From an uncultured Chloroflexia bacterium (GTDB lineage: Bacteria > Chloroflexota > Anaerolineae > CG2-30-64-16): DNA of 64,000 nucleotides. Below, one piece after another: positions 1 to 23,957 of the stretch. Both the position numbers and the translations under genes were made by a program. The DNA lies in NCBI GenBank assembly GCA_963837925.1, contig CAWIPK010000005.1, forward strand, positions 79,376 through 143,375, read 5' to 3'. Below the pieces are notes generated by a model that was given only the letters and a program-made list of their open reading frames with translations, had not been told where the DNA came from and did no database searches. Numbering within the stretch: the stretch's first letter is position 1; every line of letters begins with the position of its first letter.

Positions 1-2636
1 GATCGCCTGGCTGCGCAAAAACTGGCGGCTCATTCTCGCCACCGAAGCCCTGTTCCTGGCGGTGCTGGCTGCCTGGACGGTCTTTCGGGCCTACAGCGGT
101 GACATCGCCGGCACCGAGAAGCCGATGGAGTTCGCCTTCATCAACGGCATTCTCGATAGCCGTTTCTTCCCGCCGCAGGACCCCTGGCTGTCAGGCTATG
201 CGATCAGTTACTACTACTTCGGCTACGTGATGCTGGCGGCCCTCATCCGGCTGAGCGGCGTCTTGCCCGCCGTCGGTTTCAACGTCGGCGTTGCCATGTG
301 GTACGCACTCACCCTGACCGGCGCCTTTGGCGTGGTCTATGACCTCGTGCGGCTGGCCGGCCTGCGGCGGGCAGCCCCGGCCCCGCCGCCCGTGGGCCCG
401 GGCGCGGAAGAGGAGCCGGCCGGGCGCCCACCCCGGCCCGCCGCGGCGCCGCTCCGGCCCGGCAGCCCCGGCATCGCTCCGCAGGCGGCGCAGGCCTCGG
501 CGCTGCCCCCAGCCGCCTCGGCGTCGCGCGCGCAGCCGGCCCTGGCGGTCGGTCCCTCCACAGGGCAGCCGGTCAGGTTGGGCCAGGCGGCCCTGCCGGA
601 CGTCCGCGAGCGCGCGAGCCGGGCAGAGGCATCGGCGGTCGCCGATCAGGCTGGGGTCGCCAGGGCGATCCGGTTCGGCCTGGTAGGCGCCCTGCTGACG
701 GGCGTGATGGGCAACCTCGAAGGCCTGGTGGAGATGGCCTACAACCGCCGGCTCGTCCCGCTGGCCTGGATCCAGTGGCTTGACATAAAGGGACTGACGG
801 ACAGCGCGCCGAGCGGTGGTTGGGCGGGCGGCTTTTGGTGGTGGTGGCACGCCTCGCGCACGGTCCATGACCAACTGCTCGGCCGCACGCTCGAGGTCAT
901 CGACGAGTTCCCCTTCTTCAGTTTTCTCTTGGGCGACCTGCATCCGCACGTGCTGGCGCTGCCGTTCGTCTTGCTGGCGGTCGGCCTGGCGCTGAACCTG
1001 GTGCTGCAGGCCTCGGAGTTGGTGCTGGCCGCCGATGCTCCTCGGGTCCGCCCGGGGAGCGCCTCCTCGTCCGCACCGCTTGCACGGGGCGGCTCCCTGA
1101 TCGGCGAGTTGTCGAGCGGGTTGGCGCACTTCTGGGCCTTTCTCGGCCGGGTCACCGGCATGGGAGCGCCGGGGATCTTCCTTTACGCCCTGGCGCTGGG
1201 TGCGCTGGCGTTCCTCAACACCTGGGATTTCCCGATCTACCTTGCCTTGGCGGGCCTGGCCCTGGGGGCCGGCCTGGCGCTGCCGAACGGGCTTAACCGG
1301 CGGGTGCTCGGCAGGGTGCTTGGTGCGGGCTTGGTGCTGGGCGCGCTCGGGATCGCGCTCTATTTCCCATTCTACGTTGGCTTCCAATCGCAGGCCGGCG
1401 GGATCTTGCCCAACCTGTTCTTTCCCACGCGCTTCAGCCAGTTCTTCCTGATGTTCGGCCCCTTCCTGGTGGTGACCGTCTTTTTCCTGCTGCTGTTGAG
1501 CGGCGGCTTGCCGCGGCGCACGTTGTTCGGGCACTTATGGCGACTGTGGCTGTGGCTCGTCTTGCTGCCCCTGGCCTTCCTGGGCCTGATCCTCGGCGGG
1601 GCGTTGCTGTTGCCGCAGGGGCGTGCCGTGGCCGATGCCCTCCTGAGCAACGGCGACGTGCGCGCCGCTCTGGGTGGGCGGGACGTCTCGCAGGTCGCTG
1701 CCCTGGTGGTCCAGTTGCGGGCTGCCACTCCCTGGACCTTTCTGGTGCTGGCGATCCTGATCGCCTGGGCGGGAGGGTTGTTGTGGACCTGGCTGGCCGG
1801 GCGCGGGGCTGACCGGCGCGGACGGGCTCGACGCCGCCGGCCCGGTGCGCCGCGCTTGCCCGCCGACCGACTTGTTCGTGACGGTCATGATCGCCCTGGC
1901 GCTGCTGCTTACCCTCAGCGTGGAATTTGTCTACCTGAAGGACTATTTCTCGTCGCGCATGAACACGGTCTTCAAGTTCTATTACCAGGCCTGGATACTA
2001 CTGGCCCTGGCCTCGGCCTACGGGCTGAGCCGCCTGGCTGAGGCCAGGACGCGGCCCGCCCTGGCCCTTCCGGGCCTCGGCCTGGCCGGCCTGTTGATCT
2101 TCGGCGGGCTCTATTACCCGTTGCTTGCCACGCCGAGCAAGGCCAACGACTTCCAGGCTCAGTCGACCGCCCAGGCAGGCGCCTGCCCGGCCGTCCCGAC
2201 GCTCGACGGGCTGAGCTTTCTCTGCCAGAGCGATCGCGCCGACTATCAGGCCATCACCTGGATCCGGGCCAACCTGCCGCCGACCGCCACCGTCCTCGAG
2301 TACGCGGGCGGCTCGTACAGCGCCGAGGGCGCCGAGCGTATCTCCATGTCGACCGGCAATCCGACCCTGCTCGGCTGGGATTTTCACGAGCGGCAATGGC
2401 GCGGCGGCGCCTTCGATGCGCTGGCAGGGGCCCGCCCCGATGCCATCCAGGCCATCTATCGCACGGCCGCTCCGGACGAGCTGCGCGGCCTGCTCGAGCG
2501 CTGGCACGTCGATTACGTGTATGTGGGGGCCCTGGAGCGGAGCAAGTATGGCATTACCGACCCGGTCATGGCGCGTTTTGACCGCGTTCTGCGCAAGGTG
2601 TACGACGAGGATGGCGTGAGGATCTACGCGCGTTGA
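1..2636 (+). CDS. DUF2298 / Chlor_Arch_YYY-type polytopic membrane protein. The N-terminus lies a few codons upstream of the window. The reading frame breaks near 1800-1845, shifting from the frame of ORF 62..2041 to the frame of ORF 1845..2636.
   Basis: Translation from nt 2 reads IAWLRKNWRLILATEALFLAVLAAW, continuing into ORF 62..2041 with the hallmark motif ...GYAISYYYFGYVMLAA. ORF 1845..2636 (...TVMIALALLLTLSVEFVYLKDYF...NTVFKFYYQAWIL...) is the C-terminal part of the same family, in another frame. The frame switch coincides with a G-run (cgcgggg, ~1803-1808). Confidence 0.7.
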
Positions 2637-2659
2637 AGAGTTTTCAAGAGTGGTGACCT

Positions 2660-4603
2660 ATGACCCAAGCTGAACTTACTGCCCGAACGACCGGCGCCGG
2701 CCTCGGCCTGTCCGCCTGGCTGACGACTGAGCGTGTGGCCTATGCCGGGGCCGCCGGCCTGGCACTGTTCCTGCGCCTGCTCGGGCTCGGCCTTCGGCCG
2801 CTGGGTCCGGCGGAAGCTGCCCAGGCCCTGCCGGCCTGGCAGGCCGGGCAAGCCCAGCCGTTTCAGCTATCGGGCCTCAGCCCTTTGCTCTTCGGGCTGC
2901 AGCGTTGGTTGTTCACGCCTCTGGCCGGCAGCGACGGCCTGGCGCGTTGGTGGCCCGCCCTGGCCGGCGGCCTGGCGACGCTGCTGTTCTACGCCTTGCG
3001 CGCTCGCCTGGGGCGCGCTGGGGCCCTGGTCGCCGCGCTGCTCTGGGCCGGCTCACCGCTGGCGGTGTTCATCAGCCGGCAGGCGACCGGTTATGGCCTG
3101 GTGCCGCCGCTGGCGCTGGCCCTGCTCGCCGGCCTTAGCCTGGCGCTGCGGGCGCGGGAAGGACTTGCCCCCTCGCCCACGGCAGAACCGCCGATCGCGA
3201 CCGACAGGCGGGCCGGGGTAGCTGGCGGACGGCCGGCCTCGGGGGAGGGCCGCACGGCCCTCGTCTGGGCGGCCATCGCGCTGGGCGCCCTTCTGGCCGC
3301 GGGTTCCGGTGCCTATACCGTGCTGCTGATCGGACTGGCTGCCGCCCTGCTCTGGCCGGGCACGACCGTTCGCCTCGCCAGCGCCATGCGCGGGCACGCT
3401 CGCCCGGTCTTGCTGGCCGGGGTGCTGTCTTTCGTGCTCTCGTCGACAGCCCTCTTCTCCACCCCTGCCGGTCTCGCCGCAGCCGCTGACCTGCTCGGGG
3501 CCTGGTTGCGGGGCCTCATGCCCGGCCTGACCGGCTACAGCCCGGCCGAGCTGCTGCTGCGGCTGCTGTTGAGCGAGCCGCTCCTGTTAGGATTCGGCAT
3601 CGCCGGGCTGGTGTGGGCCATCCGCCGCAGGGACGGCTTTGGCCTCTTCGCCGGCCTGGCCGCCGGCCTGGCCCTGCTGGTCCCGCTGCTCGGCGGCGGG
3701 CGCCAGGTGGACGACCTGGGTCTCGTGGTGATCCCGTTGCTCCTGCTCGCCGGCCCTGCCATCGCCTGGACGCTGGCGGCCCTCTGGTCCTGGCGCAGGG
3801 AGGTCGACCCCTGGCTCTTGGTGGCGCTCAGCCTGACGCTGCTGGCCGCCGCGGCCATCAGCCTGCCGAGTTTCTATGCCGCCACGGATGCCGGCCACCG
3901 GGTCCTCTACCTCGGCGTGACAGCGGTCACTCTGCTGCTCCTTGCGGGTTTGTGGCTGGTCTACGGCGCGTGGGGGAGCTGGCACACAGTGCGGCGGGCG
4001 CTGCCGGCGGTGGCGCTGCTGGTAGGCGTGGTCTGGGCCTTGAGCCAACTTAACAGCCTGAATTATGACACCAACCCGCTGCAGCGCCCGGGGGTCTTGC
4101 TACGCACGCCGGGTCCGGACTGGGCGGACTTGCGGGCCGAGCTGCGCGACCTTTCGGCGCTCAACTCCGGCGGTGCGCGGGAGGCGCCCATCGACCTCGT
4201 CGTGCCGCTGGACCCGGCTGACCCGTTGACTCCCATGTTGCTCTGGGAGCTGCGTGACCACAGCGCGCTCCGGGTCGGGACCGGCCTGCCGTCGAACCCC
4301 GCCCCGCTCGTGATCACGCCGGCTGACGTTCAGCCGGCCATCGGCGATCGCTCGATCGGAGACCGCTACAGCGGTGCCAGCTTTGATCTGCTCGAGCAGT
4401 GGAGACCCGAAAGCCTGACCGGGCCAGACCCGGCCCAGCAGTGGCTGCGCTGGATCATCTACCGGCAGGCGCCCACGGCGCCCGAGACGACCTGGAAGGC
4501 TGTGCTCTGGGCAGACCGCTTGCCGGCCGGGCAGGGATTTTCGCAAAACAGCCTGAACAATCAGGTGTCACCCGTCGCCTTGCCAGCTGGCAAGGCGCAG
4601 TAA
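2660..4603 (+). CDS. Polytopic membrane protein resembling PMT/ArnT-like GT-C-fold glycosyltransferases, the family typically encoded next to DUF2298/YYY proteins. It has no NHL domain.
   Basis: 647-aa ORF with many predicted TM helices. N-terminal region (LALFLRLLGLGLRPLGPAEAAQALPAWQ ... RWWPALAGGLATLLFYAL ... AGSPLAVFISRQATGYGL) has the same architecture as the N-terminal halves of the next two genes. It lies in the same operon, 23 nt after the DUF2298 gene. Confidence 0.55.
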   Translation: MTQAELTARTTGAGLGLSAWLTTERVAYAGAAGLALFLRLLGLGLRPLGPAEAAQALPAWQAGQAQPFQLSGLSPLLFGLQRWLFTPLAGSDGLARWWPALAGGLATLLFYALRARLGRAGALVAALLWAGSPLAVFISRQATGYGLVPPLALALLAGLSLALRAREGLAPSPTAEPPIATDRRAGVAGGRPASGEGRTALVWAAIALGALLAAGSGAYTVLLIGLAAALLWPGTTVRLASAMRGHARPVLLAGVLSFVLSSTALFSTPAGLAAAADLLGAWLRGLMPGLTGYSPAELLLRLLLSEPLLLGFGIAGLVWAIRRRDGFGLFAGLAAGLALLVPLLGGGRQVDDLGLVVIPLLLLAGPAIAWTLAALWSWRREVDPWLLVALSLTLLAAAAISLPSFYAATDAGHRVLYLGVTAVTLLLLAGLWLVYGAWGSWHTVRRALPAVALLVGVVWALSQLNSLNYDTNPLQRPGVLLRTPGPDWADLRAELRDLSALNSGGAREAPIDLVVPLDPADPLTPMLLWELRDHSALRVGTGLPSNPAPLVITPADVQPAIGDRSIGDRYSGASFDLLEQWRPESLTGPDPAQQWLRWIIYRQAPTAPETTWKAVLWADRLPAGQGFSQNSLNNQVSPVALPAGKAQ

Positions 4604-4620
4604 CTTGAATAACAGGTTCC

Positions 4621-7600
4621 ATGTCTGACTACGACTTCACGCCCGATGCTGGCGCTCCGATCGCCTTGCCCGGCCCCGCCGGAGCGGCCGTCGTCGGCGC
4701 GCCTGCGCGCCCGGCGGCGCCTGGGGCCGCGCCCGCGGCCGGCGCTCCGTCCATGCCGGTGGAGAGCCTGCTGGATCGCCCCTTCCTGCAAGTCGTGCGT
4801 TGGGATGGCGAGAAACTGGCCTGGCTGCTGCTGTTGGCCGCCGCCCTGGCCAGCCGGCTGATCGGCCTCGGCGACCGAGCGATCAGCCACGACGAGAGCC
4901 TGCACGCCCTCTATTCCTGGCACCTGTTCGACGGCCAGGGGTATCAGCACGAAGCCATGATGCACGGGCCGCTCAAGTTCGCCGGCAACGCCTTCATGTA
5001 CTTCATTTTCGGGGTCAACGACTGGAGCGCGCGCATCCAGGTGGCCCTGTTCGGCGTGCTGATGGTGGGGTTGGTGTGGTTGCTGCGGCCGTGGCTGGGG
5101 CGGGTGGGGGCCTTTCTGGCGGCCCTGATGTTCACGATCTCGCCGGCGCTGCTGTTCCACAGCCGCTACATCCGGGATGAGGTGATCCTGTGTGCGCTGC
5201 TGGTGCTGCTGGTGGTGGCGATGTTCCGCTACCTGGCGACACGGCAGACGAAGTGGCTGATCTGGACTGCGGTGGCGTTGGGACTGGCCCTGACGACCAT
5301 GGAGGCCTCGTTCATCTTCGGCGGCATCTTCGGCATCTTCCTGCTCCTGGCCCTCGCCGTGCGCCTCTGGACCTGTCCCTGGCCCTCCGCGGCGGCCACC
5401 GCCCCTTCCGGCGGGGACGGCTACCCTCCCGACGCGGCCGCGCGCGCGCCGGCGCCGGCGGACCGCAGGAAGCTCTATCGCTACCTGGTGGGCGCGGCCG
5501 TGCCGGGGTTGGCCGCCGACACGGCCCTCCTGATCTTCAGGCAATCCCTGCCCGGCCTGGCTCTGGCCGGCCTGGGTGCCCTCTTGGCGCTCGGCGCGGC
5601 CTTCATAGTGGCACTCGCCTGGCGCTCACGCCTGCGCCTTTTCGTCGAGCTGGACCTGCTGGTCCTGCTGTTCACGCTGGTGCTGCCGTTCCTGACGGTT
5701 TTCCCGATGCGGCTGCTGGGCTGGTCTGTGGACCCATTCAAGAAAGCGGACGGCGCCTTCACCCTTGCCACCACCTGGCAGGGTTTTCTCGTCATGGGCA
5801 TCCTGGCCCTGATCAGCCTCGGCATCGGCTGGTACTGGTTGCGCGGGCGCTGGCTCGCGGCGGCCGGCATCTTCTGGGCCATCGAGCTGGTGCTCTTCAC
5901 CTCGTTCCTGACCAACGGCATGGGCGTGGGCACGGGCATCATCGGCTCCCTGGGCTACTGGATCGACCAGCAGGAGGTCATGCGCGGCGGGCAGCCCTGG
6001 TACTACTTCCTGCTGATGGTGCCGCTCTACGAGTTCCTGCCGCTGCTGCTCGCCGCCGGGGGGGCGCTCGCGATCCTCACGCACGGCACCGGCCGGCCTT
6101 TCGCGTCCTCGCTGCCGTCGGGCGACGCGAGCCTGGGCTCCATCCGGCCGCCGGCCGCCGGGCCGCAAAGCTCCTACCAGGGGGAGTCCCGGCCGGAGCT
6201 ATTGCAGGCGCTCGACGTGCGAGCGCTGTTCCCACTCTTCCTGCTCTTCTGGGTCGCCGCCACCTGGGTTGTCTTCACCTACGTAGGTGAGAAGATGCCC
6301 TGGCATGTGGTGTATTTTGCCACGCCCATGGCCCTGCTCGGTGGCTGGTGGCTGGGCCGGGTGATCGAGGGCATTGACTGGGGCGTCGTGCGGGCGCGCG
6401 GGGGCTTCTGGCTTCTGGCCGCGCTGCCGGCATTTTTGCTCGCCCTCAAAGCGATCTTCCCGGTCTCCGCCAATCGGCCTTTCGTCGACATGAGCGTCAA
6501 CGGGCTGGGCACCACCGTCGGCTGGATCGCGGCGCTGCTCGTCGGGTTGGCAGTGCTCTGGCTGGCCTCGGGGCGCGTCGCCGCGCTCGGGCGCGCACAA
6601 AGCGTGCGCCTGCTGGCCGTGGGCCTGGCCGCCCTGCTGGGGATTTATACTGTCGGGGTCGCTTATCGCTTTGCCTACATCAACTACGACTATCCTACCG
6701 AGCCGCTGGTCTACGCTCACGGTACGCCGGACCTGAAGTTGGCGATGAGCCAGGTCGAGGAGATCTCGCGCAAGACCGTGGGCGGCCACAACTTGAAGAT
6801 TGCCTACGATAGCGACGCCCTGTGGCCACTGGAGTGGTACTTGCGGGATTACGGCAACCGGGTCTACTACGGGGAAACCCCCTCGCGCGCCGCCCTGGAC
6901 GCGCCGGTGGTCATCGTGGGCGACGGTGGGCTGGACAAGGCCAAGCCTTACCTGGGCGACCGCTACTACGACTTCACCTACCGCCTCATCTGGTGGCCCC
7001 GCCAGACGTACTGGGACCTGACCTGGCAGCGCATCTGGGATGGGATCCGAGACCCGAAACAGCGCGGCCAGTTCTGGGACGTCGTGCTCAACCGGCGTTA
7101 CACCACGCCGACGGCGGCCTGGGAGCCACCGTACGTGCGCTTCTTCCACTTGTTTGTGCGCAAGGACGTGGCGGCGCAGGTCTGGGACTGGGGGGTGCCG
7201 TCGGCCGCGGCGGCCGCGGCGGCAGTGGATCCGTATGCGGCGGGGCAGAAGGATGTGACGGCGCTGGCGCAGATAGGGACGGCGGGGGTGAGCGGGGCCG
7301 GGGCGGGGCAGTTGGCGACGCCGCGGGCGCTGGCGGTGGCGGGGGACGGGACGGTGTACGTGGCGGACACGGGGAACAATCGGGTGGAGGTGTTTGGGGC
7401 GGACGGGCAGTACCTGCGGGAGTGGGGCGGGACGTGCAAGCTGATCGAGAACAACCAGGGCTGCGTGGGGGACGGGCGGGGGCAGTTCAACGAGCCGTGG
7501 GGGATTGCGGTGGGGAGTGACGGGAGCGTGTACGTGTCGGACACCTGGAACTCGCGGGTGCAGAAGTTTGACCGGGAGGGGAAGTTCGAGGCGATGTGGG

Positions 7601-8172
7601 GGGTGTTCCAGAGCACGAACGGGGAGTTGACGGAGCCTGGGGCGCTGTACGGGCCGCGGGCGATCGCGGTGGGGCAGGACGGGTTGGTGTATGTGATGGA
7701 CACGGGGAACAAGCGGGTGCAGTCGTTCAAGCCGGACGGGACGTTTGTCGGGCAGTACGGTGGGGGAGGGGTGGTGGACGGGAAGTTTGACGAGCCGGTG
7801 GGGCTGGCGCAGGATGCGAGCGGGGACTGGTACGTGACGGACACGTGGAACCACCGGGTGGAGAAGTTTGATGCGAGTTGGAAGTATGTGGGGCAGTGGG
7901 CGGTGAACGGCTGGGGGAGCGAGAGCGTGGTGAACAAGCCGTACGTGGCGGTGGACGGGCAGCGCGGGTTGGTGTACCTGACGGACCCGGAGGGGTACCG
8001 GGTGTTGGTGTTCGGGACGGACGGGAGCTTCAAGGGGATGTGGGGTGGATTTGGGCAGGAAGCGGACACGTTCACGCTGCCGACGGGGATTGCGGTGGGG
8101 GCGGACGGCAAGGTTTACGTGGCCGATGGCGGCGCCAACCGCATCATGATCTTCCCAGCCTTCGGGAGTTAG
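4621..8172 (+). CDS. Fusion protein: N-terminal PMT/ArnT-like GT-C membrane domain (~830 aa, many TM helices, DE-containing first loop ISHDESLH) plus C-terminal NHL-repeat six-bladed beta-propeller (~340 aa).
   Basis: 1183-aa intact ORF. N-terminal LIGLGDRAISHDESLHALYSWHLFDGQG...GPLKF...FYFIFGVNDWSARIQ resembles PMT_2/ArnT-type GT-C enzymes. The C-terminus has repeated NHL blades (LATPRALAVAGDGTVYVADTGNNRVEVF; PWGIAVGSDGSVYVSDTWNSRVQKF; PRAIAVGQDGLVYVMDTGNKRVQSF; PVGLAQDASGDWYVTDTWNHRVEKF; PTGIAVGADGKVYVADGGANRIMIF). An Ala-run linker (PSAAAAAAAVDPY) joins the two domains. Confidence 0.8.
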   Translation: MSDYDFTPDAGAPIALPGPAGAAVVGAPARPAAPGAAPAAGAPSMPVESLLDRPFLQVVRWDGEKLAWLLLLAAALASRLIGLGDRAISHDESLHALYSWHLFDGQGYQHEAMMHGPLKFAGNAFMYFIFGVNDWSARIQVALFGVLMVGLVWLLRPWLGRVGAFLAALMFTISPALLFHSRYIRDEVILCALLVLLVVAMFRYLATRQTKWLIWTAVALGLALTTMEASFIFGGIFGIFLLLALAVRLWTCPWPSAAATAPSGGDGYPPDAAARAPAPADRRKLYRYLVGAAVPGLAADTALLIFRQSLPGLALAGLGALLALGAAFIVALAWRSRLRLFVELDLLVLLFTLVLPFLTVFPMRLLGWSVDPFKKADGAFTLATTWQGFLVMGILALISLGIGWYWLRGRWLAAAGIFWAIELVLFTSFLTNGMGVGTGIIGSLGYWIDQQEVMRGGQPWYYFLLMVPLYEFLPLLLAAGGALAILTHGTGRPFASSLPSGDASLGSIRPPAAGPQSSYQGESRPELLQALDVRALFPLFLLFWVAATWVVFTYVGEKMPWHVVYFATPMALLGGWWLGRVIEGIDWGVVRARGGFWLLAALPAFLLALKAIFPVSANRPFVDMSVNGLGTTVGWIAALLVGLAVLWLASGRVAALGRAQSVRLLAVGLAALLGIYTVGVAYRFAYINYDYPTEPLVYAHGTPDLKLAMSQVEEISRKTVGGHNLKIAYDSDALWPLEWYLRDYGNRVYYGETPSRAALDAPVVIVGDGGLDKAKPYLGDRYYDFTYRLIWWPRQTYWDLTWQRIWDGIRDPKQRGQFWDVVLNRRYTTPTAAWEPPYVRFFHLFVRKDVAAQVWDWGVPSAAAAAAAVDPYAAGQKDVTALAQIGTAGVSGAGAGQLATPRALAVAGDGTVYVADTGNNRVEVFGADGQYLREWGGTCKLIENNQGCVGDGRGQFNEPWGIAVGSDGSVYVSDTWNSRVQKFDREGKFEAMWGVFQSTNGELTEPGALYGPRAIAVGQDGLVYVMDTGNKRVQSFKPDGTFVGQYGGGGVVDGKFDEPVGLAQDASGDWYVTDTWNHRVEKFDASWKYVGQWAVNGWGSESVVNKPYVAVDGQRGLVYLTDPEGYRVLVFGTDGSFKGMWGGFGQEADTFTLPTGIAVGADGKVYVADGGANRIMIFPAFGS
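7149..8160 (+). repeat. 1012-bp segment identical to 10623-11634 (offset 3474 bp). It encodes the linker plus NHL propeller of both paralogs.
   Basis: Direct comparison of the two stretches: every spot-checked line is identical (e.g. 7261-7320 vs 10735-10794, and 7861-7920 vs 11335-11394). The encoded protein sequences are identical from LFVRKDVAAQ to RIMIFPA. Confidence 0.85.
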
Positions 8173-8175
8173 AGA

Positions 8176-11100
8176 ATGCAGGATTCACAAACGACGGTTA
8201 CTCCGCGGCGCGAGGCCCCGGTCGGCCAGGCTCTGCTTGACCGGGCTTTCGTGGCGCTGGTGCATTGGGATGTAGAGAAGCTGGCCTGGGCGGCCCTGCT
8301 GGTCGTCGCCTTGCTCAGTCGCACGATCGGCCTGGGCGACCGCGCGATGAGCCACGACGAGAGCCTGCATTCTTATTACTCATGGAAGCTGTTCGACGGC
8401 CAGGGCTTTCAGCACCAGCCGCTGATGCATGGGCCGCTCAAGTTCATCGTCAACGCCTTCATGTACTTCATTTTCGGGGTCAACGACTGGAGCGCGCGCA
8501 TCCAGGTGGCCCTGTTCGGCGTGCTGATGGTGGGGTTGGTGTGGTTGCTGCGGCCGTGGCTGGGGCGGGTGGGGGCTTTCCTGGCGGCCTTGATGTTCAC
8601 GATCTCGCCGGCGCTGCTGTTCCACAGCCGCTACATCCGGGATGAGGTGATCCTGTGTGCGCTGCTGGTGCTGCTGGTGGTGGCGATGTTCCGCTACCTG
8701 GCGACACGGCAGACGAAGTGGCTGATCTGGACGGCGGTGGCATTGGGACTGGCCCTGACGACCATGGAGGCCTCCTTCATCTTCGGCGGCATCTTCGGCA
8801 TCTTCCTGCTCCTGGCCCTCGCCGTCCAGTGGTGGCAGCTCGACTGGCCGGATGGCCCCGGTCCCCGCGAGAACTTCCGCCGCGCGCTCGTCGTGGGGCT
8901 GCCGGCCCTGGTCGCCGGCCTGATCTTCCTCGTGTTCAAGGAAAAGCTGGCCGGCTTTGTTCTGCTGGGCGCCGGCGGCCTGGCGCTCGCCGCTGCGGTG
9001 CTCCTGGTGGCCACGAGCTGGCGGCTGCGGCTGCGCGCTTTCGCCGAGCTCGACCTGGTCGTCCTGCTGCTGACGCTCGTCCTGCCGTTCCTGTCCGCCG
9101 TCGTCCTCAAGCTGCTGGGCTGGCAGATCAGCCAGTTCACGAGCCCGGGCTCGGTCACTTTGGCCAACGTCTGGCAGGGCGGCATCGTCCTCGTCGTCAT
9201 GTTCATCCTCAGCGTCTCCGTCGGCGCCTACTGGTTGGGCGGGCGCTGGTTCGCGGCCGCGGGCCTCTTCTGGGCGATCGAGGTGCTGCTCTTCACGACT
9301 TTGCTGACCAACGGGCAGGGCATTGCCACCGGCCTGATCGGTTCCCTGGGTTACTGGATCGATCAACAGGAGGTCATGCGTGGCGGCCAACCCTGGTACT
9401 ATTTCTTCCTCTTGGTCCCGCTCTACGAGTTCCTGCCGCTGCTGCTGGCCGCCGGGGGGGCAGTTGCCTGGTTCCTGGGCCTCGGTGCCGGCGGCCAGGC
9501 GACGCGCCTGGCGGCCGAACGGCAGAACGGCAACGCTGGGGCCGACGGGGGCGGCACCGTACTGCCGGTCATGGGCGCAGCCCTGGCCGCAGAATATCCC
9601 GGGCCGAGCAACGTCGTCGAGCTGCGCGGCGCGCCTCCGGCCGTCGGGCCGGTTGAGAGCGTGCTCCACACGACGCCCTCCCAGGCGGGCTCTTCGCCGG
9701 CGAGCCTTTTCGTAGCCTTCCTGGTCTTCTGGGTGTTCGCGGTCTGGGTCGTCTTCACCTACGTAGGTGAGAAGATGCCCTGGCACGTGGTGTATTTCGC
9801 CACGCCCATGGCCCTGCTCGGTGGCTGGTGGTTGGGCCGGGTGATCGAGGGCATTGACTGGGGCGTCGTGCGGGCGCGCGGGGGCTTCTGGCTGCTGGGC
9901 GGCGTCCCGGTGTTCCTCTTCGTGCTCAAAGCCATCTTTCCCGTCCCGGAGCGCCGTCCCTTTGTCGGCGTTAGCACCACCGCGCTCAGCAACACCGTCC
10001 AATGGCTGCTCGCGCTGATCGTCGGCGTCGCGCTCGTCTGGCTGGCCTACCCGCGGATCACAAGCCTCGGTTGGCGCCTCAGCCGGCGACTGATCGTGGT
10101 CGCGCTCGCTGTCGTGCTGGCCGTCTTTACGGTCAACGTGGCATTCCGTTTCGCCTTCGTCGACTACGACTATGCCACCGAGCCGATGGTTTACGCGCAC
10201 GCGACCCCGGATATCAAGCTGGCTATGGGCCAGATCGACGAGATCTCGCGCAAGATCGCCGGCGATCACAGCCTGAAGGTGGCCTACGACGACGATTCGA
10301 GCTGGCCGCTGGTCTGGTATCTGAGGGACTACAAGAATCAGGTCTTCTATGGCGCGAATCCGACCAAGGAGAGCCTGGATGCGCCGGTGGTCATCGCCGG
10401 CGATAAGAACATCGACAAAGTGCGGCCCTATCTCGGCGATCGCTACTACGAGTTCAGCTATCGGCTGATCTGGTGGCCGTCCCAGACCTACTTCGGGCTG
10501 ACCTGGCAGCGCATCTGGGACGGGATCCGAGACCCGAAACAGCGCGGCCAGTTCTGGGACGTCGTGCTCAACCGGCGTTACACCACGCCGACCACCCAGT
10601 GGTCGTTGGTACACCGTTTCAGCTTGTTTGTGCGCAAGGACGTGGCGGCGCAGGTCTGGGACTGGGGGGTGCCGTCGGCCGCGGCGGCCGCGGCGGCAGT
10701 GGATCCGTATGCGGCGGGGCAGAAGGATGTGACGGCGCTGGCGCAGATAGGGACGGCGGGGGTGAGCGGGGCCGGGGCGGGGCAGTTGGCGACGCCGCGG
10801 GCGCTGGCGGTGGCGGGGGACGGGACGGTGTACGTGGCGGACACGGGGAACAATCGGGTGGAGGTGTTTGGGGCGGACGGGCAGTACCTGCGGGAGTGGG
10901 GCGGGACGTGCAAGCTGATCGAGAACAACCAGGGCTGCGTGGGGGACGGGCGGGGGCAGTTCAACGAGCCGTGGGGGATTGCGGTGGGGAGTGACGGGAG
11001 CGTGTACGTGTCGGACACCTGGAACTCGCGGGTGCAGAAGTTTGACCGGGAGGGGAAGTTCGAGGCGATGTGGGGGGTGTTCCAGAGCACGAACGGGGAG

Positions 11101-11643
11101 TTGACGGAGCCTGGGGCGCTGTACGGGCCGCGGGCGATCGCGGTGGGGCAGGACGGGTTGGTGTATGTGATGGACACGGGGAACAAGCGGGTGCAGTCGT
11201 TCAAGCCGGACGGGACGTTTGTCGGGCAGTACGGTGGGGGAGGGGTGGTGGACGGGAAGTTTGACGAGCCGGTGGGGCTGGCGCAGGATGCGAGCGGGGA
11301 CTGGTACGTGACGGACACGTGGAACCACCGGGTGGAGAAGTTTGATGCGAGTTGGAAGTATGTGGGGCAGTGGGCGGTGAACGGCTGGGGGAGCGAGAGC
11401 GTGGTGAACAAGCCGTACGTGGCGGTGGACGGGCAGCGCGGGTTGGTGTACCTGACGGACCCGGAGGGGTACCGGGTGTTGGTGTTCGGGACGGACGGGA
11501 GCTTCAAGGGGATGTGGGGTGGATTTGGGCAGGAAGCGGACACGTTCACGCTGCCGACGGGGATTGCGGTGGGGGCGGACGGCAAGGTTTACGTGGCCGA
11601 TGGCGGCGCCAACCGCATCATGATCTTCCCAGCCTGGCAGTAA
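8176..11643 (+). CDS. Tandem paralog of the previous gene: GT-C-like membrane domain fused to an identical C-terminal NHL beta-propeller.
   Basis: 1155-aa intact ORF that starts 3 nt after the previous stop. It shares near-identical blocks with the previous gene (8431-8825 vs 4966-5360; 9750-9899 vs 6270-6419; 10501-10596 vs 7021-7116) and the perfectly identical 3' block. Other segments are strongly diverged. Confidence 0.8.
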   Translation: MQDSQTTVTPRREAPVGQALLDRAFVALVHWDVEKLAWAALLVVALLSRTIGLGDRAMSHDESLHSYYSWKLFDGQGFQHQPLMHGPLKFIVNAFMYFIFGVNDWSARIQVALFGVLMVGLVWLLRPWLGRVGAFLAALMFTISPALLFHSRYIRDEVILCALLVLLVVAMFRYLATRQTKWLIWTAVALGLALTTMEASFIFGGIFGIFLLLALAVQWWQLDWPDGPGPRENFRRALVVGLPALVAGLIFLVFKEKLAGFVLLGAGGLALAAAVLLVATSWRLRLRAFAELDLVVLLLTLVLPFLSAVVLKLLGWQISQFTSPGSVTLANVWQGGIVLVVMFILSVSVGAYWLGGRWFAAAGLFWAIEVLLFTTLLTNGQGIATGLIGSLGYWIDQQEVMRGGQPWYYFFLLVPLYEFLPLLLAAGGAVAWFLGLGAGGQATRLAAERQNGNAGADGGGTVLPVMGAALAAEYPGPSNVVELRGAPPAVGPVESVLHTTPSQAGSSPASLFVAFLVFWVFAVWVVFTYVGEKMPWHVVYFATPMALLGGWWLGRVIEGIDWGVVRARGGFWLLGGVPVFLFVLKAIFPVPERRPFVGVSTTALSNTVQWLLALIVGVALVWLAYPRITSLGWRLSRRLIVVALAVVLAVFTVNVAFRFAFVDYDYATEPMVYAHATPDIKLAMGQIDEISRKIAGDHSLKVAYDDDSSWPLVWYLRDYKNQVFYGANPTKESLDAPVVIAGDKNIDKVRPYLGDRYYEFSYRLIWWPSQTYFGLTWQRIWDGIRDPKQRGQFWDVVLNRRYTTPTTQWSLVHRFSLFVRKDVAAQVWDWGVPSAAAAAAAVDPYAAGQKDVTALAQIGTAGVSGAGAGQLATPRALAVAGDGTVYVADTGNNRVEVFGADGQYLREWGGTCKLIENNQGCVGDGRGQFNEPWGIAVGSDGSVYVSDTWNSRVQKFDREGKFEAMWGVFQSTNGELTEPGALYGPRAIAVGQDGLVYVMDTGNKRVQSFKPDGTFVGQYGGGGVVDGKFDEPVGLAQDASGDWYVTDTWNHRVEKFDASWKYVGQWAVNGWGSESVVNKPYVAVDGQRGLVYLTDPEGYRVLVFGTDGSFKGMWGGFGQEADTFTLPTGIAVGADGKVYVADGGANRIMIFPAWQ
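10623..11634 (+). repeat. Second copy of the 1012-bp identical block (see 7149-8160).
   Basis: As for 7149-8160. Confidence 0.85.
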
Positions 11644-11686
11644 GTCCAGCGCGGGTAGCTCGCTGACTGATCGCCTTGTCCGGGGA

Positions 11687-11695
11687 TGATATAAT
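11687..11695 (+). promoter_or_regulatory. Extended -10 element (TGaTATAAT) upstream of sucC. No good -35 is present.
   Basis: Sequence gaTGaTATAATgcg sits ~80 nt upstream of the sucC start. Confidence 0.35.
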
Positions 11696-11774
11696 GCGCG
11701 TGTGTCACGGGTGATACGAAGACGTGTCACCCTTTCGTCGTCAGTGACGGGGTTTCTGGTAAGGAGGCATAGCC

Positions 11775-12914
11775 TTGAAACTGCAGGAATACCAGGCCAA
11801 GCAGATCTTCGGTCAGTACGGGGTGCCCGTCCCGCATGGGGATGTGGCCGATACTCCAGCCGGGGCGCGCGCGATCGCCGAGCGGTTGGGCGGGACGGTG
11901 GTGATCAAGTCACAGGTGTTGGTGGGCGGACGCGGCAAGGCCGGCGGCATCAAGCTGGCGAAATCGCCAGTCGAGGCCGAGCAGGTCGCGTCGCGCATCC
12001 TGGGGATGGACCTCAAAGGGTCGACCGTCAAGAAGGTGCTGGTGGATCCCGCGGCCGACATCCGCAAGGAGCTCTACCTGGGCATGGTCATCGACCGGGC
12101 ACGCCGGCGCACGGTTATGATGGCCTCCAGGGAGGGCGGAGTGGATATCGAAGAGGTCGCGGCGACCGCGCCTGAGAAGATCATCCAGGTCGCGATTGAC
12201 CCCTGCCTGGGCATGAAGGACTACCAGGCGCGTGATGCCGCGATGGGGATCGGCCTGCCGCGCGAGCAGTTGGCGGCCTTCTCGCAGATTTGCCAGGCTC
12301 TGTACAACTGCTTTGTCGGTAGCGATGCCAGCCTGGCCGAGATCAACCCCCTGGTCGTCCTCGGCGATGGCAAACTGCTGGCCGTCGATGGCAAAATGGT
12401 GCTCGACGACAACGCCCTCTTCCGCCACCCCGAGCTCGCGGCCTTGCGCGACGACGAAGAGGAGACGCCCGAAGAGCGCCAGGCGCGCGAGGGCGGTCTC
12501 AGCTACGTCAAGCTCGACGGACACATCGGCTGCATGGTCAATGGCGCAGGGCTCGCCATGGCGACGATGGACATCATCAAGTACTACGGCGGTTCGCCTG
12601 CTAACTTCCTCGATATCGGCGGCGGCGCCCGCGCCGATAAGGTGGCCACGGCGCTGCGCATCATCCTCTCCGATCCCAATGTTCACGCCGTGCTCTTCAA
12701 CATTTTCGGCGGCATCACTCGCTGCGATGAGGTGGCGCGCGGCATCGTCCAGTCCTTGCAGGAGGTGCCCACGAAGGTACCGATGGTGGTGCGGCTGGTC
12801 GGCACGAACGACGTCGAGGGCCGGGCTATCCTGCAAGACGCGCAGATGCAGACGGCCGAGACGCTGGCCGAGGCAGCCCAGAAGGCTGTCGCCGCGGCCA
12901 AGGTCCAGGGTTGA
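11775..12914 (+). CDS. sucC: Succinyl-CoA synthetase (ADP-forming) beta subunit.
   Basis: TTG start 7 nt after AAGGAGG. N-terminus [20 protein letters not shown]...[21 protein letters not shown] matches the SucC ATP-grasp N-terminus. 379 aa. Confidence 0.95.
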
Positions 12915-12998
12915 CCGCGTCGGGAAGGGCCAGACGTCGTCCGCCCTCCTTATCAGGGCCAATCTGCGGCACCCGCCTACGTAAATGAAGAGGACAAC

Positions 12999-13868
12999 AT
13001 GAGCATCCTGGTCGACAAAGACACTCGCCTGCTGGTGCAGGGGATCACCGGTCGAGAAGGCGCCTTCCATACTGAGCAGATGATCGCCTATGGCACCAAG
13101 GTCGTGGCCGGCGTGACCCCGGGGAAAGGCGGCAGTTGGGGGGTCGGCAACGTGCCGATCTTCGACACCGTCCGCGAGGCCGTCGACGCCACCGGCGCCA
13201 ACGTCAGCATCATCTACGTGCCCGCCCGCGGCGCGCCCGATGCCATTCTTGAATCGGCCGACGCCGGGCTTGGCCTGGTCGTCTGTATCACCGAGGGGAT
13301 CCCGACCCTGGACATGATCAAGGTGCGGGCCTACCTCGACAACAGCCGTACCCGCTTGATCGGCCCCAACTGTCCCGGCCTTATCACGCCCGGCGAGGCT
13401 AAGGTGGGAATCATGCCCGGCCACATTCACACGCGTGGCCCGGTCGGTGTGGTCAGCCGCTCGGGCACGCTGACTTACGAAGTGGTCTATGCCTTGACCC
13501 TGCGCGGAATCGGCCAATCGACCGCGGTGGGCATCGGCGGCGACCCGATCATCGGCTCGACTTTTGTCGATATCCTGCAGCTCTTCGAGAACGATGCCGA
13601 CACCGAACAGGTCGTCATGATCGGCGAGATCGGCGGCGAGGGTGAGGAACGCGCTGCCGAGTTCATAAGCGAGCACATGACCAAGCCCGTCACCGGGTTC
13701 ATTGCCGGACAGACGGCTCCGCCCGGGAAGCGCATGGGTCACGCCGGGGCCATCATCAGTGGTGGCAAGGGCACCGCGGCCGACAAGATCGCCGCGCTGC
13801 GGGCGGTCGGCGTGCGCATCGCCAGCCACCCCGGCGAGATCGCCGAGACGGTCGCCGAGCTGGCGTAG
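12999..13868 (+). CDS. sucD: Succinyl-CoA synthetase alpha subunit.
   Basis: [45 protein letters not shown] ... SRSGTLTYE ... MGHAGAII is near-colinear with E. coli SucD. 289 aa. RBS GAAGAGGA. Confidence 0.95.
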
Positions 13869-13960
13869 CCGAGGGTGCCCGGCCCTCGCATCTGCCCATC
13901 CCGTGCACCGGCGAGCCGGGCCACAGGTGCGCGGGACGGCCTTCCCGCAAAGGCCACGGC

Positions 13961-15577
13961 ATGCTGACTTTCCCCGACTCAACCATCGCGCGCGTGCTGA
14001 CCCATATCCGCCAGCGGGGCGACCCCGCCTGGCTGGTTGGCGGGACCGTGCGCGACTACTTCCTTGGCCGGGCTACGCATGACCTGGACATTATCGTTCC
14101 CGAGGGCGGCATCCGCTTGGCGCGCTCGGTCGCCGGAGCGTTCGGGGGTGGGTTTTTTGTGCTCGACAAGGTGCGTGACGTGGGTCGGGCCGTCCTGCGT
14201 GGCGATGAGGGCCGGCCGCTCTTCGTGGATGTCGCGCGCCAGCGCGCGCCCGATCTGCTCGCCGATCTTGCCCAGCGCGATTTTACGGTCAATGCCATCG
14301 CCGTGCCCCTGTGGGCCGGCGCCGCTGAGCCTGGGGCGGAGCCGACGGTCGTCGATCCGTTCGACGGGCGCGGTGACGTCGTTCGCCGCTCGCTCCGCGC
14401 CGTTGGGGACACGGCGTTCGTCGACGATCCGCTGCGCATGTTGCGGGCTGTCCGCCTGGCCGCCGAGCTCGGCTTCAGTATTGAATCTTCCACCGCGGAC
14501 ATGGTGCGGGGCGATGCTCATCTGCTGCCGGCTGTCGCCAGCGAGCGCATCCGGGACGAGTTGATGCGCATCGTCACCGTCTCGGGCGCCTGGCGCCATC
14601 TGCGCTGCCTGTCGGCTCTCGGTCTACTGCCGTTCGCCCTGCCCGAGGTCGCCGCTTTGGTGGGCATCGAACAGTCGCTGCCGCACTACCTCGACGTCTT
14701 CGATCACACTCGAGCCGTCGTCGCGCACCTGGAAGGCCTGATTGCCTTCTTGTGGCCCGCAAGCCAGTACTCTCGCCCCCAAGCTATCGCCGGCGACCCG
14801 GTGATCATCGCCGCCGCGGCGCGTTGGGATGAGCTGGCCGCGCTGCTCGAGCCCTACCTCGCCCCCCTGCGCTCGCATCTGGCCCGGCCCCTGGCCGGGG
14901 GGCACTCGCGGCGCGACTGGCTCTTCTGGGCCACGCTCGCGCACGACTGGGGCAAGGCCTTGACTGCCAGCACCGGCCCCGACGGCCGGATGCACTTCTA
15001 CGGACATGAACACGAGAGCGCGCGCCTGGCGGCCCTGCGGGCCAGGGACCTGAGTGCCGCGTCCAGCGAGGTCGATTACCTGAGCCGCATGGTGGACTAT
15101 CACATGCGGCCCGGTCACCTGGCGGGCCGTTACCCGCCTACCCGGCGCGCCTTGTATCATCTGTTCCGCGACGCCGGCGACCTCAGTCCAGATGTCGCCC
15201 TGCTGGCCCTCGCCGATCAACTGGCGACCCATGCGGCCGAGAGCCGGCCGGGCGCAGCCGATGGGCAAGGCGAAGCGGGGATCCTCGAGGGCTGGAACTG
15301 GGCGGATCAGCTCGGCGTGGCCGGCCTGATCCTGGGCAATTACTTCTCGATCGGCGGCCCGCCGGACGGCGAGAGGGTGCTGGCGAACCCGCGCCCGCTG
15401 CTGAATGGCCGGCAGATCATGGCTGAGTTTGGCCTCAACCCCGGCCCCTTGATCGGCCGCCTGATCGCGGCCCTGCGCGAGGCCCAGGCGATCGGCGAGG
15501 TCACGACGGCTGAGGAGGCCTGCCTTTGGATCCGGGCCCAACTGAGTGAGCTTGACGCCGGCCCGGTCGATGAGTAA
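13961..15577 (+). CDS. cca: tRNA nucleotidyltransferase (CCA-adding) / poly(A) polymerase family enzyme with C-terminal HD domain.
   Basis: N-terminal Pol-beta-type NTase head (LVGGTVRDYFLGRATHDLDIIV ... RDFTVNAIA). Downstream HD region (FDHTRAVVAHLE...). 538 aa. Confidence 0.8.
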   Translation: MLTFPDSTIARVLTHIRQRGDPAWLVGGTVRDYFLGRATHDLDIIVPEGGIRLARSVAGAFGGGFFVLDKVRDVGRAVLRGDEGRPLFVDVARQRAPDLLADLAQRDFTVNAIAVPLWAGAAEPGAEPTVVDPFDGRGDVVRRSLRAVGDTAFVDDPLRMLRAVRLAAELGFSIESSTADMVRGDAHLLPAVASERIRDELMRIVTVSGAWRHLRCLSALGLLPFALPEVAALVGIEQSLPHYLDVFDHTRAVVAHLEGLIAFLWPASQYSRPQAIAGDPVIIAAAARWDELAALLEPYLAPLRSHLARPLAGGHSRRDWLFWATLAHDWGKALTASTGPDGRMHFYGHEHESARLAALRARDLSAASSEVDYLSRMVDYHMRPGHLAGRYPPTRRALYHLFRDAGDLSPDVALLALADQLATHAAESRPGAADGQGEAGILEGWNWADQLGVAGLILGNYFSIGGPPDGERVLANPRPLLNGRQIMAEFGLNPGPLIGRLIAALREAQAIGEVTTAEEACLWIRAQLSELDAGPVDE

Positions 15578-15592
15578 AACGCGAAATTCGTT

Positions 15593-15621
15593 TTGACACA
15601 ATCCCGCACCAAAGGTATAAT
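15593..15621 (+). promoter_or_regulatory. Consensus sigma70 promoter for secDF: TTGACA (15593-15598), 17-nt spacer, TATAAT (15616-15621).
   Basis: Sequence ttTTGACAcaatcccgcaccaaaggTATAATcc. The leader is ~90 nt to the secD ATG. Confidence 0.6.
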
Positions 15622-15716
15622 CCGCCTGTTTGCCAGCGCGCGTAACCTGATATAGCAGGCCGCGCGCTGACTTTGATGGGACGCCATTTCGGTATTCTGA
15701 GGGGGGAGACGGAAGC

Positions 15717-17111
15717 ATGCGCGATCGCGACATAGTCATTCTGATCCTGGTCATCGCGCTCGCTTTGCTCGCGGTGTGGATTGACCTGCCGATAGACCAT
15801 CCGCAATGGGCCAAGCAAGCGTTGTTCTGGCAGCAGCCTGCCGAGTTCCGTGATCTTCAGATCAAGGAAGGGCTTGATCTGCAGGGCGGCACGCAGATAT
15901 TGCTTCAAGCAGCCCCTGCGGCGGGTCAGACGGTGACGGCGGACGACATGGCGGCAGCCAAAGCGATCGTCGAGCGCCGCGTCAACGGTCTGGGCGTGAC
16001 CGAGCCCACTATCCAGTCGCAGGGTAACAACCGCATCATCGTCGAACTGCCCGGCATCAGCAATCCTGACGCGGCCGTCCAAACCCTGAAGAGCACCGGC
16101 CAGTTGGAGTTCGTCGAGATCGGCCCCGCGGATCCCAAGATCGCCGATGGCGTCTACTTGCGCACGACCAACAGCCCGGCTCCGCCCAACCAGACCACCC
16201 AGGCCAACGTATCCGATCCCTACCCGGACAAGGTCTACAAGACGATCATGACCGGCCGCGATCTGGCGCAGGTCGGTACTACCACCGACTCATCCGGCGC
16301 TCCGGCGATCAGCTTCCAGCTTTCGGCCGCGGGTTCCGAGACTTTTGCGACCTACACCTCGCAGAATGTCGGTAACGTGCTGGCCATCGTTCTGGACAAC
16401 ATCGTCCTCTCGGCCCCAAGAATCGAGACGGCCATCACCCAGGGTAGCGGCATCATCCAGGGCAAGTTCACGCTCTCCGAGGCCCAGAGCCTGGCCATCC
16501 AGATGCGCTACGGCGCGCTCCCTGTGCCTCTGGAGGTGGTCGATCGCCGCACCGTGGGGGCGACCCTTGGCGCCGATTCGGTGCGCAAGAGCATCACCGC
16601 CGGGCTGATCGGGCTGGTAGCCGTGTTGCTCTTCATCATCATCCAGTACCGTCTGCCGGGTGTTTTCGCGGCCATCGCGCTGATCATCTATGCTCTCCTG
16701 AACCTGATGATCTATAAGTTGGTCCCGGTGACGTTGACATTACCCGGTATCGCCGGTTTCCTGTTATCAATTGGCATGGCCGTGGATGCCAACATTCTCA
16801 TCTTCGAGCGCATGAAGGAAGAACTGCGTTGGGGCCGCTCCGTGCACGCGGCCTTCCTCGCCGGCTTCAGCCGCGCCTGGCCGTCGATCCGTGACTCGAA
16901 CCTCTCGACAATCATAAGCTGCATCATCCTGATCTGGTTCGGCAGCAGCTTTGGAGCGCAGTCCGTGATGGGGTTCGCACTCAACCTGGCGCTCGGTGTC
17001 ATCATCAGCATGTTCACTGCCGTCGTGGTCACCCGCACGTTCATGACCTTCTTGTTCGAGACGCGCGGCAGCGAGCAGTTGCGCGAGAGCCGCTGGCTGC
17101 TGGACTACTAG
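15717..17111 (+). CDS. secD: Protein translocase subunit SecD.
   Basis: N-terminal TM helix followed by the periplasmic domain (LDLQGGTQILLQA ... VERRVNGLGVTEPTIQSQGNNRIIVELPG). The C-terminal part carries 5 more TM helices. 464 aa. Confidence 0.9.
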   Translation: MRDRDIVILILVIALALLAVWIDLPIDHPQWAKQALFWQQPAEFRDLQIKEGLDLQGGTQILLQAAPAAGQTVTADDMAAAKAIVERRVNGLGVTEPTIQSQGNNRIIVELPGISNPDAAVQTLKSTGQLEFVEIGPADPKIADGVYLRTTNSPAPPNQTTQANVSDPYPDKVYKTIMTGRDLAQVGTTTDSSGAPAISFQLSAAGSETFATYTSQNVGNVLAIVLDNIVLSAPRIETAITQGSGIIQGKFTLSEAQSLAIQMRYGALPVPLEVVDRRTVGATLGADSVRKSITAGLIGLVAVLLFIIIQYRLPGVFAAIALIIYALLNLMIYKLVPVTLTLPGIAGFLLSIGMAVDANILIFERMKEELRWGRSVHAAFLAGFSRAWPSIRDSNLSTIISCIILIWFGSSFGAQSVMGFALNLALGVIISMFTAVVVTRTFMTFLFETRGSEQLRESRWLLDY

Positions 17112-17130
17112 AGGGGGTACGGGTAAGAGC

Positions 17131-19215: not shown

Positions 19216-19248
19216 CCTTTGGCAATCCGCTCCATGTAGGCATCTGAT

Positions 19249-23766: not shown

Positions 23767-23784
23767 GAGCCAGTATTCTCTGGG

Positions 23785-23950: not shown

Positions 23951-23957
23951 GGGACCC

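Follow-up and report, generated by a model that had tools for sequence, protein, structure and literature searches.

Evidence for segmental gene conversion between two tandem Agl23-family genes with an NHL propeller in an uncultured Chloroflexota bacterium

Concerted evolution of bacterial duplicates by gene conversion is known, for example, for the tufA/tufB genes of Salmonella and for rRNA operons. Here we describe a tandem pair of genes, named A and B, found in a window of 64,000 nucleotides (assembly GCA_963837925.1, contig CAWIPK010000005.1, positions 79,376 to 143,375) of an uncultured Chloroflexia bacterium; all coordinates below are those of this window. Both genes encode a membrane protein of the TIGR03663/Agl23 family that ends in an NHL beta-propeller, and the explanation that accounts best for the data as a whole, which we consider likely, is that they are an old tandem duplicate that has since been overwritten repeatedly by conversion between the copies. 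As in tufA/tufB and the rRNA operons, paralogs within a genome are closer than orthologs and synonymous sites are homogenised, by what would likewise be a recombination-dependent and non-reciprocal process. The pair differs from these systems in that conversion is segmental, its tracts alternating with strongly diverged segments, and in that the same two modules have been homogenised independently in two species.

As for the proteins, PMT enzymes have a DE motif in loop 1, PMT and TMTC proteins carry MIR or TPR binding domains, and Pmt1 and Pmt2 work as a paralog pair. A and B are like PMT/POMT (family GT39) and TMTC1-4 in their PMT_2 or PMT match, in an acidic D-E in what is predicted to be the first outside loop and in an outside non-catalytic repeat domain to which the acceptor could bind; however, they are without MIR or TPR and have a C-terminal NHL module instead, and the similarity is limited to the first ~150 residues. 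Identity to ArnT (GT83) and ALG12 (GT22) is 10-17%; the acceptors of these two enzymes are lipid A and lipid-linked oligosaccharide, and neither has a propeller. In Mycobacterium tuberculosis PknD the propeller, an extracellular sensor domain, is carried by a single-pass Ser/Thr kinase, whereas here NHL is found on a membrane domain of glycosyltransferase fold C (GT-C). The family itself includes Agl23 of Haloarcula hispanica, reported as a putative hexose-P-dolichol flippase, which after purification translocated M5GN2-PP-dolichol in proteoliposomes and which rescued yeast rft1-delta (PMC11182771). A and B have in common with Agl23/TIGR03663 the N-terminal membrane domain, the D-E, H-G-P and arginine residues, and a TIGR03662/DUF2298 neighbour gene, but they are bacterial (Chloroflexota, Anaerolineae-like), arranged in tandem, extended by NHL at the C-terminus and far longer than the 435-position model, and their function is putative.

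Identical and diverged segments of genes A and B

Genes A and B are co-oriented and separated by 3 nt (Table 1). A first reading made from the sequence only (hereafter the sequence-only reading) had described them as two adjacent genes with a common architecture, and in the assembled sequence they are indeed tandem paralogs, both present as open reading frames (ORFs) on the + strand. Homology extends from end to end of the two genes, at very uneven levels. The membrane domains are 67% identical in amino acids, and between the near-identical blocks 60-nt windows of the A/B codon alignment are 42-88% identical at the nucleotide level. Altogether, 633 differences were counted over 3375 aligned positions, with a longest identical run of 1013 nt, compared with a maximum of 69 in 2000 shuffles; for third codon positions the corresponding values were 339 and 55. 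The alternation between identical and diverged segments is far beyond chance, and the pairwise alignment thus shows the blocks that the sequence-only reading had proposed rather than uniform divergence.

Some details of that reading had to be changed. The near-identical blocks were said to be 97-100% identical, which is right for block 1, while blocks 2 and 3 are slightly lower; the final 1012 bp were said to be 100% identical, and the identity is exact, but the run is one base longer. The segments between the blocks were given as having little similarity, and this is the case only for the N-terminal tails and for loops at ~5400-5460 and ~6060-6210, homology being found everywhere else. The right end of tract 4 lies 9 nt before the stop codon, the point where homology between A and B ends. 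Tract 1 encodes transmembrane helices (TM) 2 to 6, part of the conserved GT-C core, and covers the invariant R182-Y183-x-R185. In paralog-specific segment 1, nonsynonymous (dN) and synonymous (dS) divergence between A and B reach 0.49 and 0.63, respectively.

Table 1. Features of the A/B locus (window coordinates)
Feature	Position	Strand	Description
Gene A	4621-8172	+	ORF, 1183 aa; TIGR03663/Agl23-family GT-C membrane domain, alpha/beta domain and NHL propeller; ends in FPAFGS-stop
Gene B	8176-11643	+	ORF, 1155 aa; architecture as gene A; ends in FPAWQ-stop
A-B junction	8164-8178	+	GGGAG inside the last codons of A, A stop TAG 8170-8172, 3-nt spacer, B ATG
First outside loop of A	4870-4905	+	motif G-D-R-A-x-S-H-D-E-S-L-H; B equivalent 8335-8370
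Conversion tract 1, copy in A	4966-5360	+	partner 8431-8825; 9 mismatches/395 bp, 97.7%
Conversion tract 1, copy in B	8431-8825	+	partner of 4966-5360
Paralog-specific segment 1 of A	5361-6269	+	aa ~248-550, TM7-TM12 and loops; B equivalent 8826-9749
Conversion tract 2 in A	6270-6419	+	partner 9750-9899; 6 mismatches/150 bp, 96.0%
Paralog-specific segment 2 of A	6420-7020	+	last TM helices and first half of the outside alpha/beta domain; B equivalent 9900-10500
Conversion tract 3 in A	7021-7116	+	partner 10501-10596; 4 mismatches/96 bp, 95.8%
Conversion tract 4, copy in A	7149-8161	+	1013 bp, 0 mismatches vs 10623-11635; linker and entire NHL propeller
Conversion tract 4, copy in B	10623-11635	+	B likely donor for the linker part
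NHL propeller of A	7306-8169	+	six-bladed, aa 896-1183; in B 10780-11640
DUF2298/TIGR03662 (Chlor_Arch_YYY) membrane protein gene	1-2636	+	cut by window start, reading frame broken
647-aa distant paralog	2660-4603	+	A/B-type membrane and alpha/beta domains, without NHL; conserved neighbour in relatives

Comparison with a sister species and competing accounts

The locus was compared with that of a sister species, with ~85% nucleotide identity to the window species in the flanking genes, represented by contigs L002 (ENA ERZ27294316), L028 (JGI24132J36420) and L001 (JGI 3300005947, Ga0066794_10000623). L002 and L028 are independent metagenome contigs, 99.66% identical to each other. We aligned the codons of the four sequences, wA and wB (window species) and sA and sB (sister species), and calculated dS and dN by segment. 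In the NHL module, A and B of the window species have a dS of 0 and those of the sister species one of 0.005, compared with a dS of 0.27 and a dN of 0.08 between species. Between the two window copies not one difference was found over 222 synonymous sites, for which P is ~2e-25 given the between-species proportion of synonymous differences (pS) of 0.226. Similarly, in block 1 the dS between A and B is 0.06 in both species, compared with 0.29 between species. The opposite was found in the unconverted segment 6420-7020, where A and B differ with a dS of 1.15-1.23 and a dN of 0.29-0.30, and the orthologs of the two species with a dS of ~0.6 and a dN of 0.06-0.07. Thus, within the tracts the paralogs of one genome are closer to each other than to their orthologs, synonymous sites included, and outside the tracts the reverse holds, which is the pattern of concerted evolution. 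Neighbour-joining trees of the segments gave the same picture, with grouping by paralog in the diverged segments and by species in block 1 and NHL. About half of the membrane domain (aa ~250-550 and 600-800) is still paralog-specific and groups by paralog across the two species. Gene conversion between tandem paralogs, one of two processes that the sequence-only reading had offered for the mosaic, is therefore borne out by the segment-wise comparison with the sister species.

The ends of the tracts are not the same in the two species. Only the window species has the linker (7149-7227) and block 2 homogenised; for block 2, dS is 0.12 between wA and wB vs 0.57 between sA and sB, and both window copies resemble the B gene of the sister species. 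Since the tract ends differ, the conversion events are independent and took place after the species split. In the linker, wA resembles sB (dN 0.07) and not sA (dN 0.27), and in blocks 2 and 3 wA is again like sB rather than sA, which makes B the likely donor. From these data, non-reciprocal homologous recombination between A and B, repeated and independent in each lineage, has overwritten the conserved catalytic-core block (TM2-TM6) and the entire NHL module, and in the window species the overwriting has gone mostly from B to A.

Concerning the age of the duplication, both L002 and L028 show an A-type 3' end (FPAFGS-stop), 3 nt, a B-type gene and sucC, in this order. The junction ...CCAGCCTTCGGGAGTTAG-NNN-ATGCAGGATTC is common to the window and to these two contigs, that is to three independent assemblies from two species, and since the A-B junction is identical in the two species, a single duplication that preceded their split is indicated by these sequences. 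The membrane domains of window A and window B are 82% and 85% identical in amino acids to their sister-species orthologs. Gene B has the C-terminal end and the branch length of single-copy relatives and adjoins sucC, the ancestral position as judged from synteny with sucCD in relatives; gene A is the faster-evolving copy, with a long branch in the tree. Of the A gene, L002 and L028 include just the last 139 and 192 nt, with 100% and 99.5% identity to the corresponding part of their own B gene; the contigs break off there, as is expected of a near-identical repeat in short-read assembly. Contig L001 carries at 603-4151 a single hybrid gene with an A-type membrane domain, then NHL, then a B-type stop, followed by sucC. 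This hybrid may have arisen in assembly, by collapse of the repeat, or be a true deletion variant left by recombination between the NHL repeats; both readings require near-identical NHL copies.

Several observations do not sit well with repeated conversion between A and B, or limit how far the data carry it. The between-species dS in tracts 4966-5360 and 7228-8160 is only 0.27-0.29, and the baseline is about twice that of the tracts, with 0.55-0.68 in the unconverted segments and 0.46-0.67 in sucC, sucD, secD and secF (11775-18081); a tract dS of about half the local baseline is not predicted by simple neutral conversion. GC-biased conversion or a later exchange between lineages could have lowered it, the signal from G+C content at third codon positions (GC3) being weak. 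The NHL module of A in the sister species is independently seen for its last 139-192 nt only, and since L001 runs from an A membrane domain through NHL into sucC, its NHL cannot be assigned to A rather than to B. Finally, two frame-broken conserved genes lie within 20 kb, so that indel errors in the window assembly are likely, and the exact 100.0% identity of the two copies of tract 4 could in part be a product of consensus polishing. GC-biased conversion was also looked at directly: GC3 is 0.91-0.95 in the tracts and 0.82-0.92 elsewhere, a gap too small to call, and in single-copy orthologs the GC3 of NHL and of the TM part is about equal.

Among the other accounts of the identical blocks, an assembly artefact would mean that a repeat was collapsed or duplicated, that alleles of two strains ended up in tandem, or that polishing with reads of ambiguous mapping evened out the repeats. 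The two broken genes show that the assembly is not error-free, and the hybrid gene of L001 shows assemblers or genomes collapsing this very repeat. However, three independent assemblies, from two species, show the A-specific 3' end (FGS-stop) followed by the B start codon, a separate sister-species ortholog exists for A and for B, and block 1 lies in unique flanks in every contig and yet has a dS of 0.06 within the genome vs 0.29 between species. Polishing would account at most for a few lost mismatches in the 1013-bp tract, and we regard an artefact as very unlikely. Slightly less probable still is a recent module exchange, the other process offered by the sequence-only reading, in which an NHL module or a whole copy would have come from another genome or a third locus onto two unrelated membrane domains. 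The tract dS of 0.27-0.29, lower than the local baseline of 0.46-0.67, would fit a later transfer between lineages. But NHL is already part of nearly all close homologs of the membrane domain (40% identity or more), which makes the fusion ancestral, a search of the first 30 kb of the window turned up no third copy of NHL, and the tract ends differ between the species as local A/B conversion would give; a source outside the A/B pair is not needed for the data. Purifying selection alone since the duplication, with the blocks as the most constrained parts of the protein, would fit their coding for the conserved catalytic core and a propeller rich in invariant residues, but to judge from these sequences it is refuted by the synonymous-site pattern and keeps practically no probability: the 222 synonymous sites of NHL show 0 differences and block 1 has a dS of 0.06, vs 0.27-0.29 for the same codons between species, the NHL amino acid divergence between species is 13%, and the protein-conserved stretch 5941-6060 is 90-100% identical in amino acids and just 65-75% at third positions.

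Protein architecture, gene neighbourhood and distribution

The membrane domain and the propeller proposed by the sequence-only reading were recovered both by HMM search and by structure prediction. The Pfam matches of A and of B are PMT_2 in the N-terminal part and five NHL repeats in the C-terminal part, and the NCBIfam model TIGR03663 ("flippase activity-associated protein Agl23") gives 219.6 bits with A and 240.2 bits with B, for a cut-off of 126.25. PF02366 (PMT) matches B only (39 bits over ~170 residues). Neither MIR nor PMT_4TMC has a Pfam match in A or B, which do not have the full set of domains that defines PMT/GT39. An AlphaFold2 model of A, built with 48 homologs (mean predicted local distance difference test score, pLDDT, 84.5; predicted template modelling score, pTM, 0.76), has a predicted membrane fold superimposable on solved GT-C enzymes, an alpha/beta domain of ~170 residues (aa ~690-860) between the last membrane helix and the propeller, and 24 beta strands in six blades. 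A search of the PDB by sequence with the membrane domain alone returned no match, and a profile search returned NHL structures only.

Invariant residues were scored in the 48 homologs, the most distant of which are 42% identical. Those in the loop that follows TM1 are R86, H90-D91-E92-S93-L94-H95 and H115-G116-P117, and further along the protein R182-Y183-x-R185, R138/R156 and a long motif around 446-474. The hallmark residues of TIGR03663, which we take to be an N-terminal D-E dipeptide, an H-G-P tripeptide and two arginines, thus have matching D-E, H-G-P and Arg residues that are all invariant in this set. The invariant H-D-E lies 10 residues past TM1 in a loop predicted to be outside and, by analogy with the loop-1 DE motif of PMT, is a candidate catalytic acidic motif. 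For the topology, the helices of the model were counted as membrane spans and four topologies were compared; the one with 17 helices had the best positive-inside bias (26 K+R inside vs 12 outside). This places the C-terminal 500 residues, NHL included, outside the cytoplasmic membrane in the model, in agreement with the extracytoplasmic propeller that had been presumed.

At the junction of the two genes, GGGAG, a Shine-Dalgarno-like sequence, lies 7 nt upstream of the gene B ATG. This layout suggests translational coupling, and A and B may be co-transcribed as well as translationally coupled. A promoter and terminator scan of 1-13000 gave no sigma-70-like promoter and terminator-like matches that were intragenic, and was uninformative. 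An open frame of 1116 aa runs antisense to gene B (8380-11730, -), and shorter antisense frames lie opposite gene A. The sense frame of A and B has a GC3 of 0.89-0.90 and carries all the domain matches, so the antisense frames probably just reflect codon bias at high genomic G+C content.

In relatives, the conserved order is a DUF2298 gene, a gene for a ~1550-aa PMT_2+DUF2298 fusion, a ~880-aa DUF2298 gene, a ~620-aa PMT_2-like gene and the TIGR03663-NHL gene, often followed by sucCD. The window holds the last three genes of this cluster, with A and then B in the last place, followed by sucC, sucD, the gene of a CCA-adding enzyme and secDF. DUF2298/TIGR03662 is the usual partner family of TIGR03663. 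Its gene in the window has a frame break at ~1786-1842, in a G+C-rich, poorly conserved loop, where relatives have a single ORF of 860-917 aa; the break is either a sequencing indel or the mark of a pseudogene. The ~1550-aa fusion of PMT_2-like and DUF2298 parts is found just upstream in the cluster in two related loci (L006, 497-5212; L012, 802-5472) and hints that TIGR03663-like and DUF2298 proteins act together. The 647-aa product of the gene upstream of A has a TIGR03663 score of 38 bits, below the cut-off, and in BLASTP it matches over 120 aa with 35% identity (E = 2e-11) and again at the C-terminus. It has G-P-A-E in place of S-H-D-E, the H-D of the H-D-E motif thus being replaced, and may be a non-catalytic partner to judge by its sequence.

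Elsewhere in the window, the zinc alcohol dehydrogenase gene (18176-19215, +) has a frame break at ~18784-18820 when compared with the 341-aa ortholog in L002. About 470 bp at 19206-19678 are missing from L002, with an apparent start of a small ORF whose N-terminus is hydrophobic and signal-peptide-like. A glmS ribozyme (RF00234, 38 bits vs a gathering score of 37) at 23780-23963 (+) lies directly upstream of glmS (23853-25805; GATase and SIS domains), and three consecutive M42 aminopeptidase paralogs at 47400-50666 (+) form another tandem family. At 55609-60832 (-) there is a gene for a 1497-aa protein with a YfhO-like N-terminus and a Polysacc_synt (MOP flippase) C-terminus, adjoining a GT2 gene, a layout reminiscent of a three-component system for extracytoplasmic glycosylation whose parts have been fused into two genes.

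The fusion of the two domains had been taken for unusual and uncharacterised; it is uncharacterised, but it is common in databases, with TIGR03663/Agl23 as its automatic annotation. Searches with the full protein and with the membrane domain gave more than 100 clusters at 90% identity, of ~1100-1200 aa with PMT_2 and NHL, the named sources being Chloroflexota/Anaerolineae, including Candidatus Amarolinea dominans, and the labels being "TIGR03663 family protein", "Agl23", "mannosyltransferase/YncE" and, wrongly, "PknD". With the membrane domain as query, phmmer found 4833 matches at E <= 1e-3 (843 at E <= 1e-30) among 1.84 billion cluster representatives, and the NHL propeller is present in 109 of the 146 best representatives and in all 102 of those of at least 950 aa. 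Counted as clusters at 50% identity there are at least 109 fusions, mostly from Anaerolineae and usually single-copy; judged by these searches the fusion is thus ancestral and widespread and not peculiar to this window. In 23 related loci of metagenome-assembled genomes (MAGs), 52-63% identical, the NHL gene is single-copy. A LacPavin MAG was considered as a second tandem case and rejected: its two loci, L003 and L024, are 90%-identical strain variants with an upstream gene in common and no tandem pair. A TIGR03663 + NHL protein of 1100 aa (P0288) is labelled as from a Candidatus Methanomethylicaceae archaeon MAG, and, provided that it was binned correctly, the fusion extends to Archaea. Our literature search on TIGR03663, DUF2298 and a fusion of GT-C with NHL or a propeller found no relevant paper.

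Proposed function and significance

For A and B we infer a role that depends on a lipid-linked sugar, either glycosyl transfer or flipping, in which the NHL propeller would be the binding module. The proteins would act on a polyprenyl-phosphate-linked sugar at the outer side of the membrane. Most likely they would pass it on to an acceptor bound by the propeller, a use for which PMT and TMTC proteins have MIR or TPR domains. In GT-C enzymes, donor and acceptor specificity is shaped by the variable module. In the pair studied here the GT-C core (TM2-TM6) and the propeller are converted, and the variable membrane half and the first part of the outside alpha/beta domain are unconverted. A and B could have a common NHL-bound target, and their variable GT-C modules are different, so that the donor lipid-sugar or the acceptor site is probably different too.

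Three points tell against this proposal. The topology comes from helix counting, and two of the helices are borderline. No polyprenyl-phosphate sugar synthase gene is adjacent to the A/B locus, the nearest GT2 gene (60035-60832) belonging to the separate YfhO/MOP-flippase locus. Finally, the single studied relative, Agl23, is described as a flippase and not as a transferase.

It is accordingly possible, although we hold it for the less probable case, that A and B are flippases or scramblases of lipid-linked sugars and no glycosyltransferases, their NHL module docking to another envelope enzyme. The NCBIfam family is named after Agl23, and the H. hispanica protein gave translocation in proteoliposomes and rescue of rft1-delta (PMC11182771). 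However, the fold is that of GT-C transferases, the first outside loop holds an invariant H-D-E, invariant arginines are predicted to be outside, and acceptor recognition typically goes with a large binding domain on the outside. An acidic first outside loop together with an outward Arg is the arrangement used by catalytic GT-C enzymes. Flipping and transfer are moreover not mutually exclusive. A more speculative view, which we think improbable, is that A and B form a heteromeric GT-C pair, by analogy with Pmt1-Pmt2, acting on one envelope target, and that selection keeps NHL identical through GC-biased conversion that removes GC-to-AT mutations. The removal of new mutations of this kind would explain why the tract dS is about half the baseline. 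If this were true, biased gene conversion between bacterial paralogs could be measured at this locus in a natural setting, and there would be an argument for seeing Agl23-family proteins as acceptor-binding transferases and not flippases alone.

Altogether, the overall observation of the sequence-only reading is confirmed and its interpretation as tandem paralogs with mosaic blocks shaped by conversion is supported. What is new here is that NHL-fused members of the Agl23 branch are duplicated and kept partly identical by segment-limited conversion, a modest novelty within a type of evolution that is already known. The GT-C-like membrane proteins of TIGR03663/Agl23, with their DUF2298 partners, are a large and conserved set in Chloroflexota and Archaea that has hardly been studied. 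The outward NHL module, present in most close bacterial relatives and identical in A and B, points to a bound acceptor or partner and offers an experimental handle. The locus is also a clean case of segmental concerted evolution, with a sister species as dated reference, independent tract ends and an inferred direction, and would be useful for studying how bacterial paralogs diverge in one module and stay identical in another.

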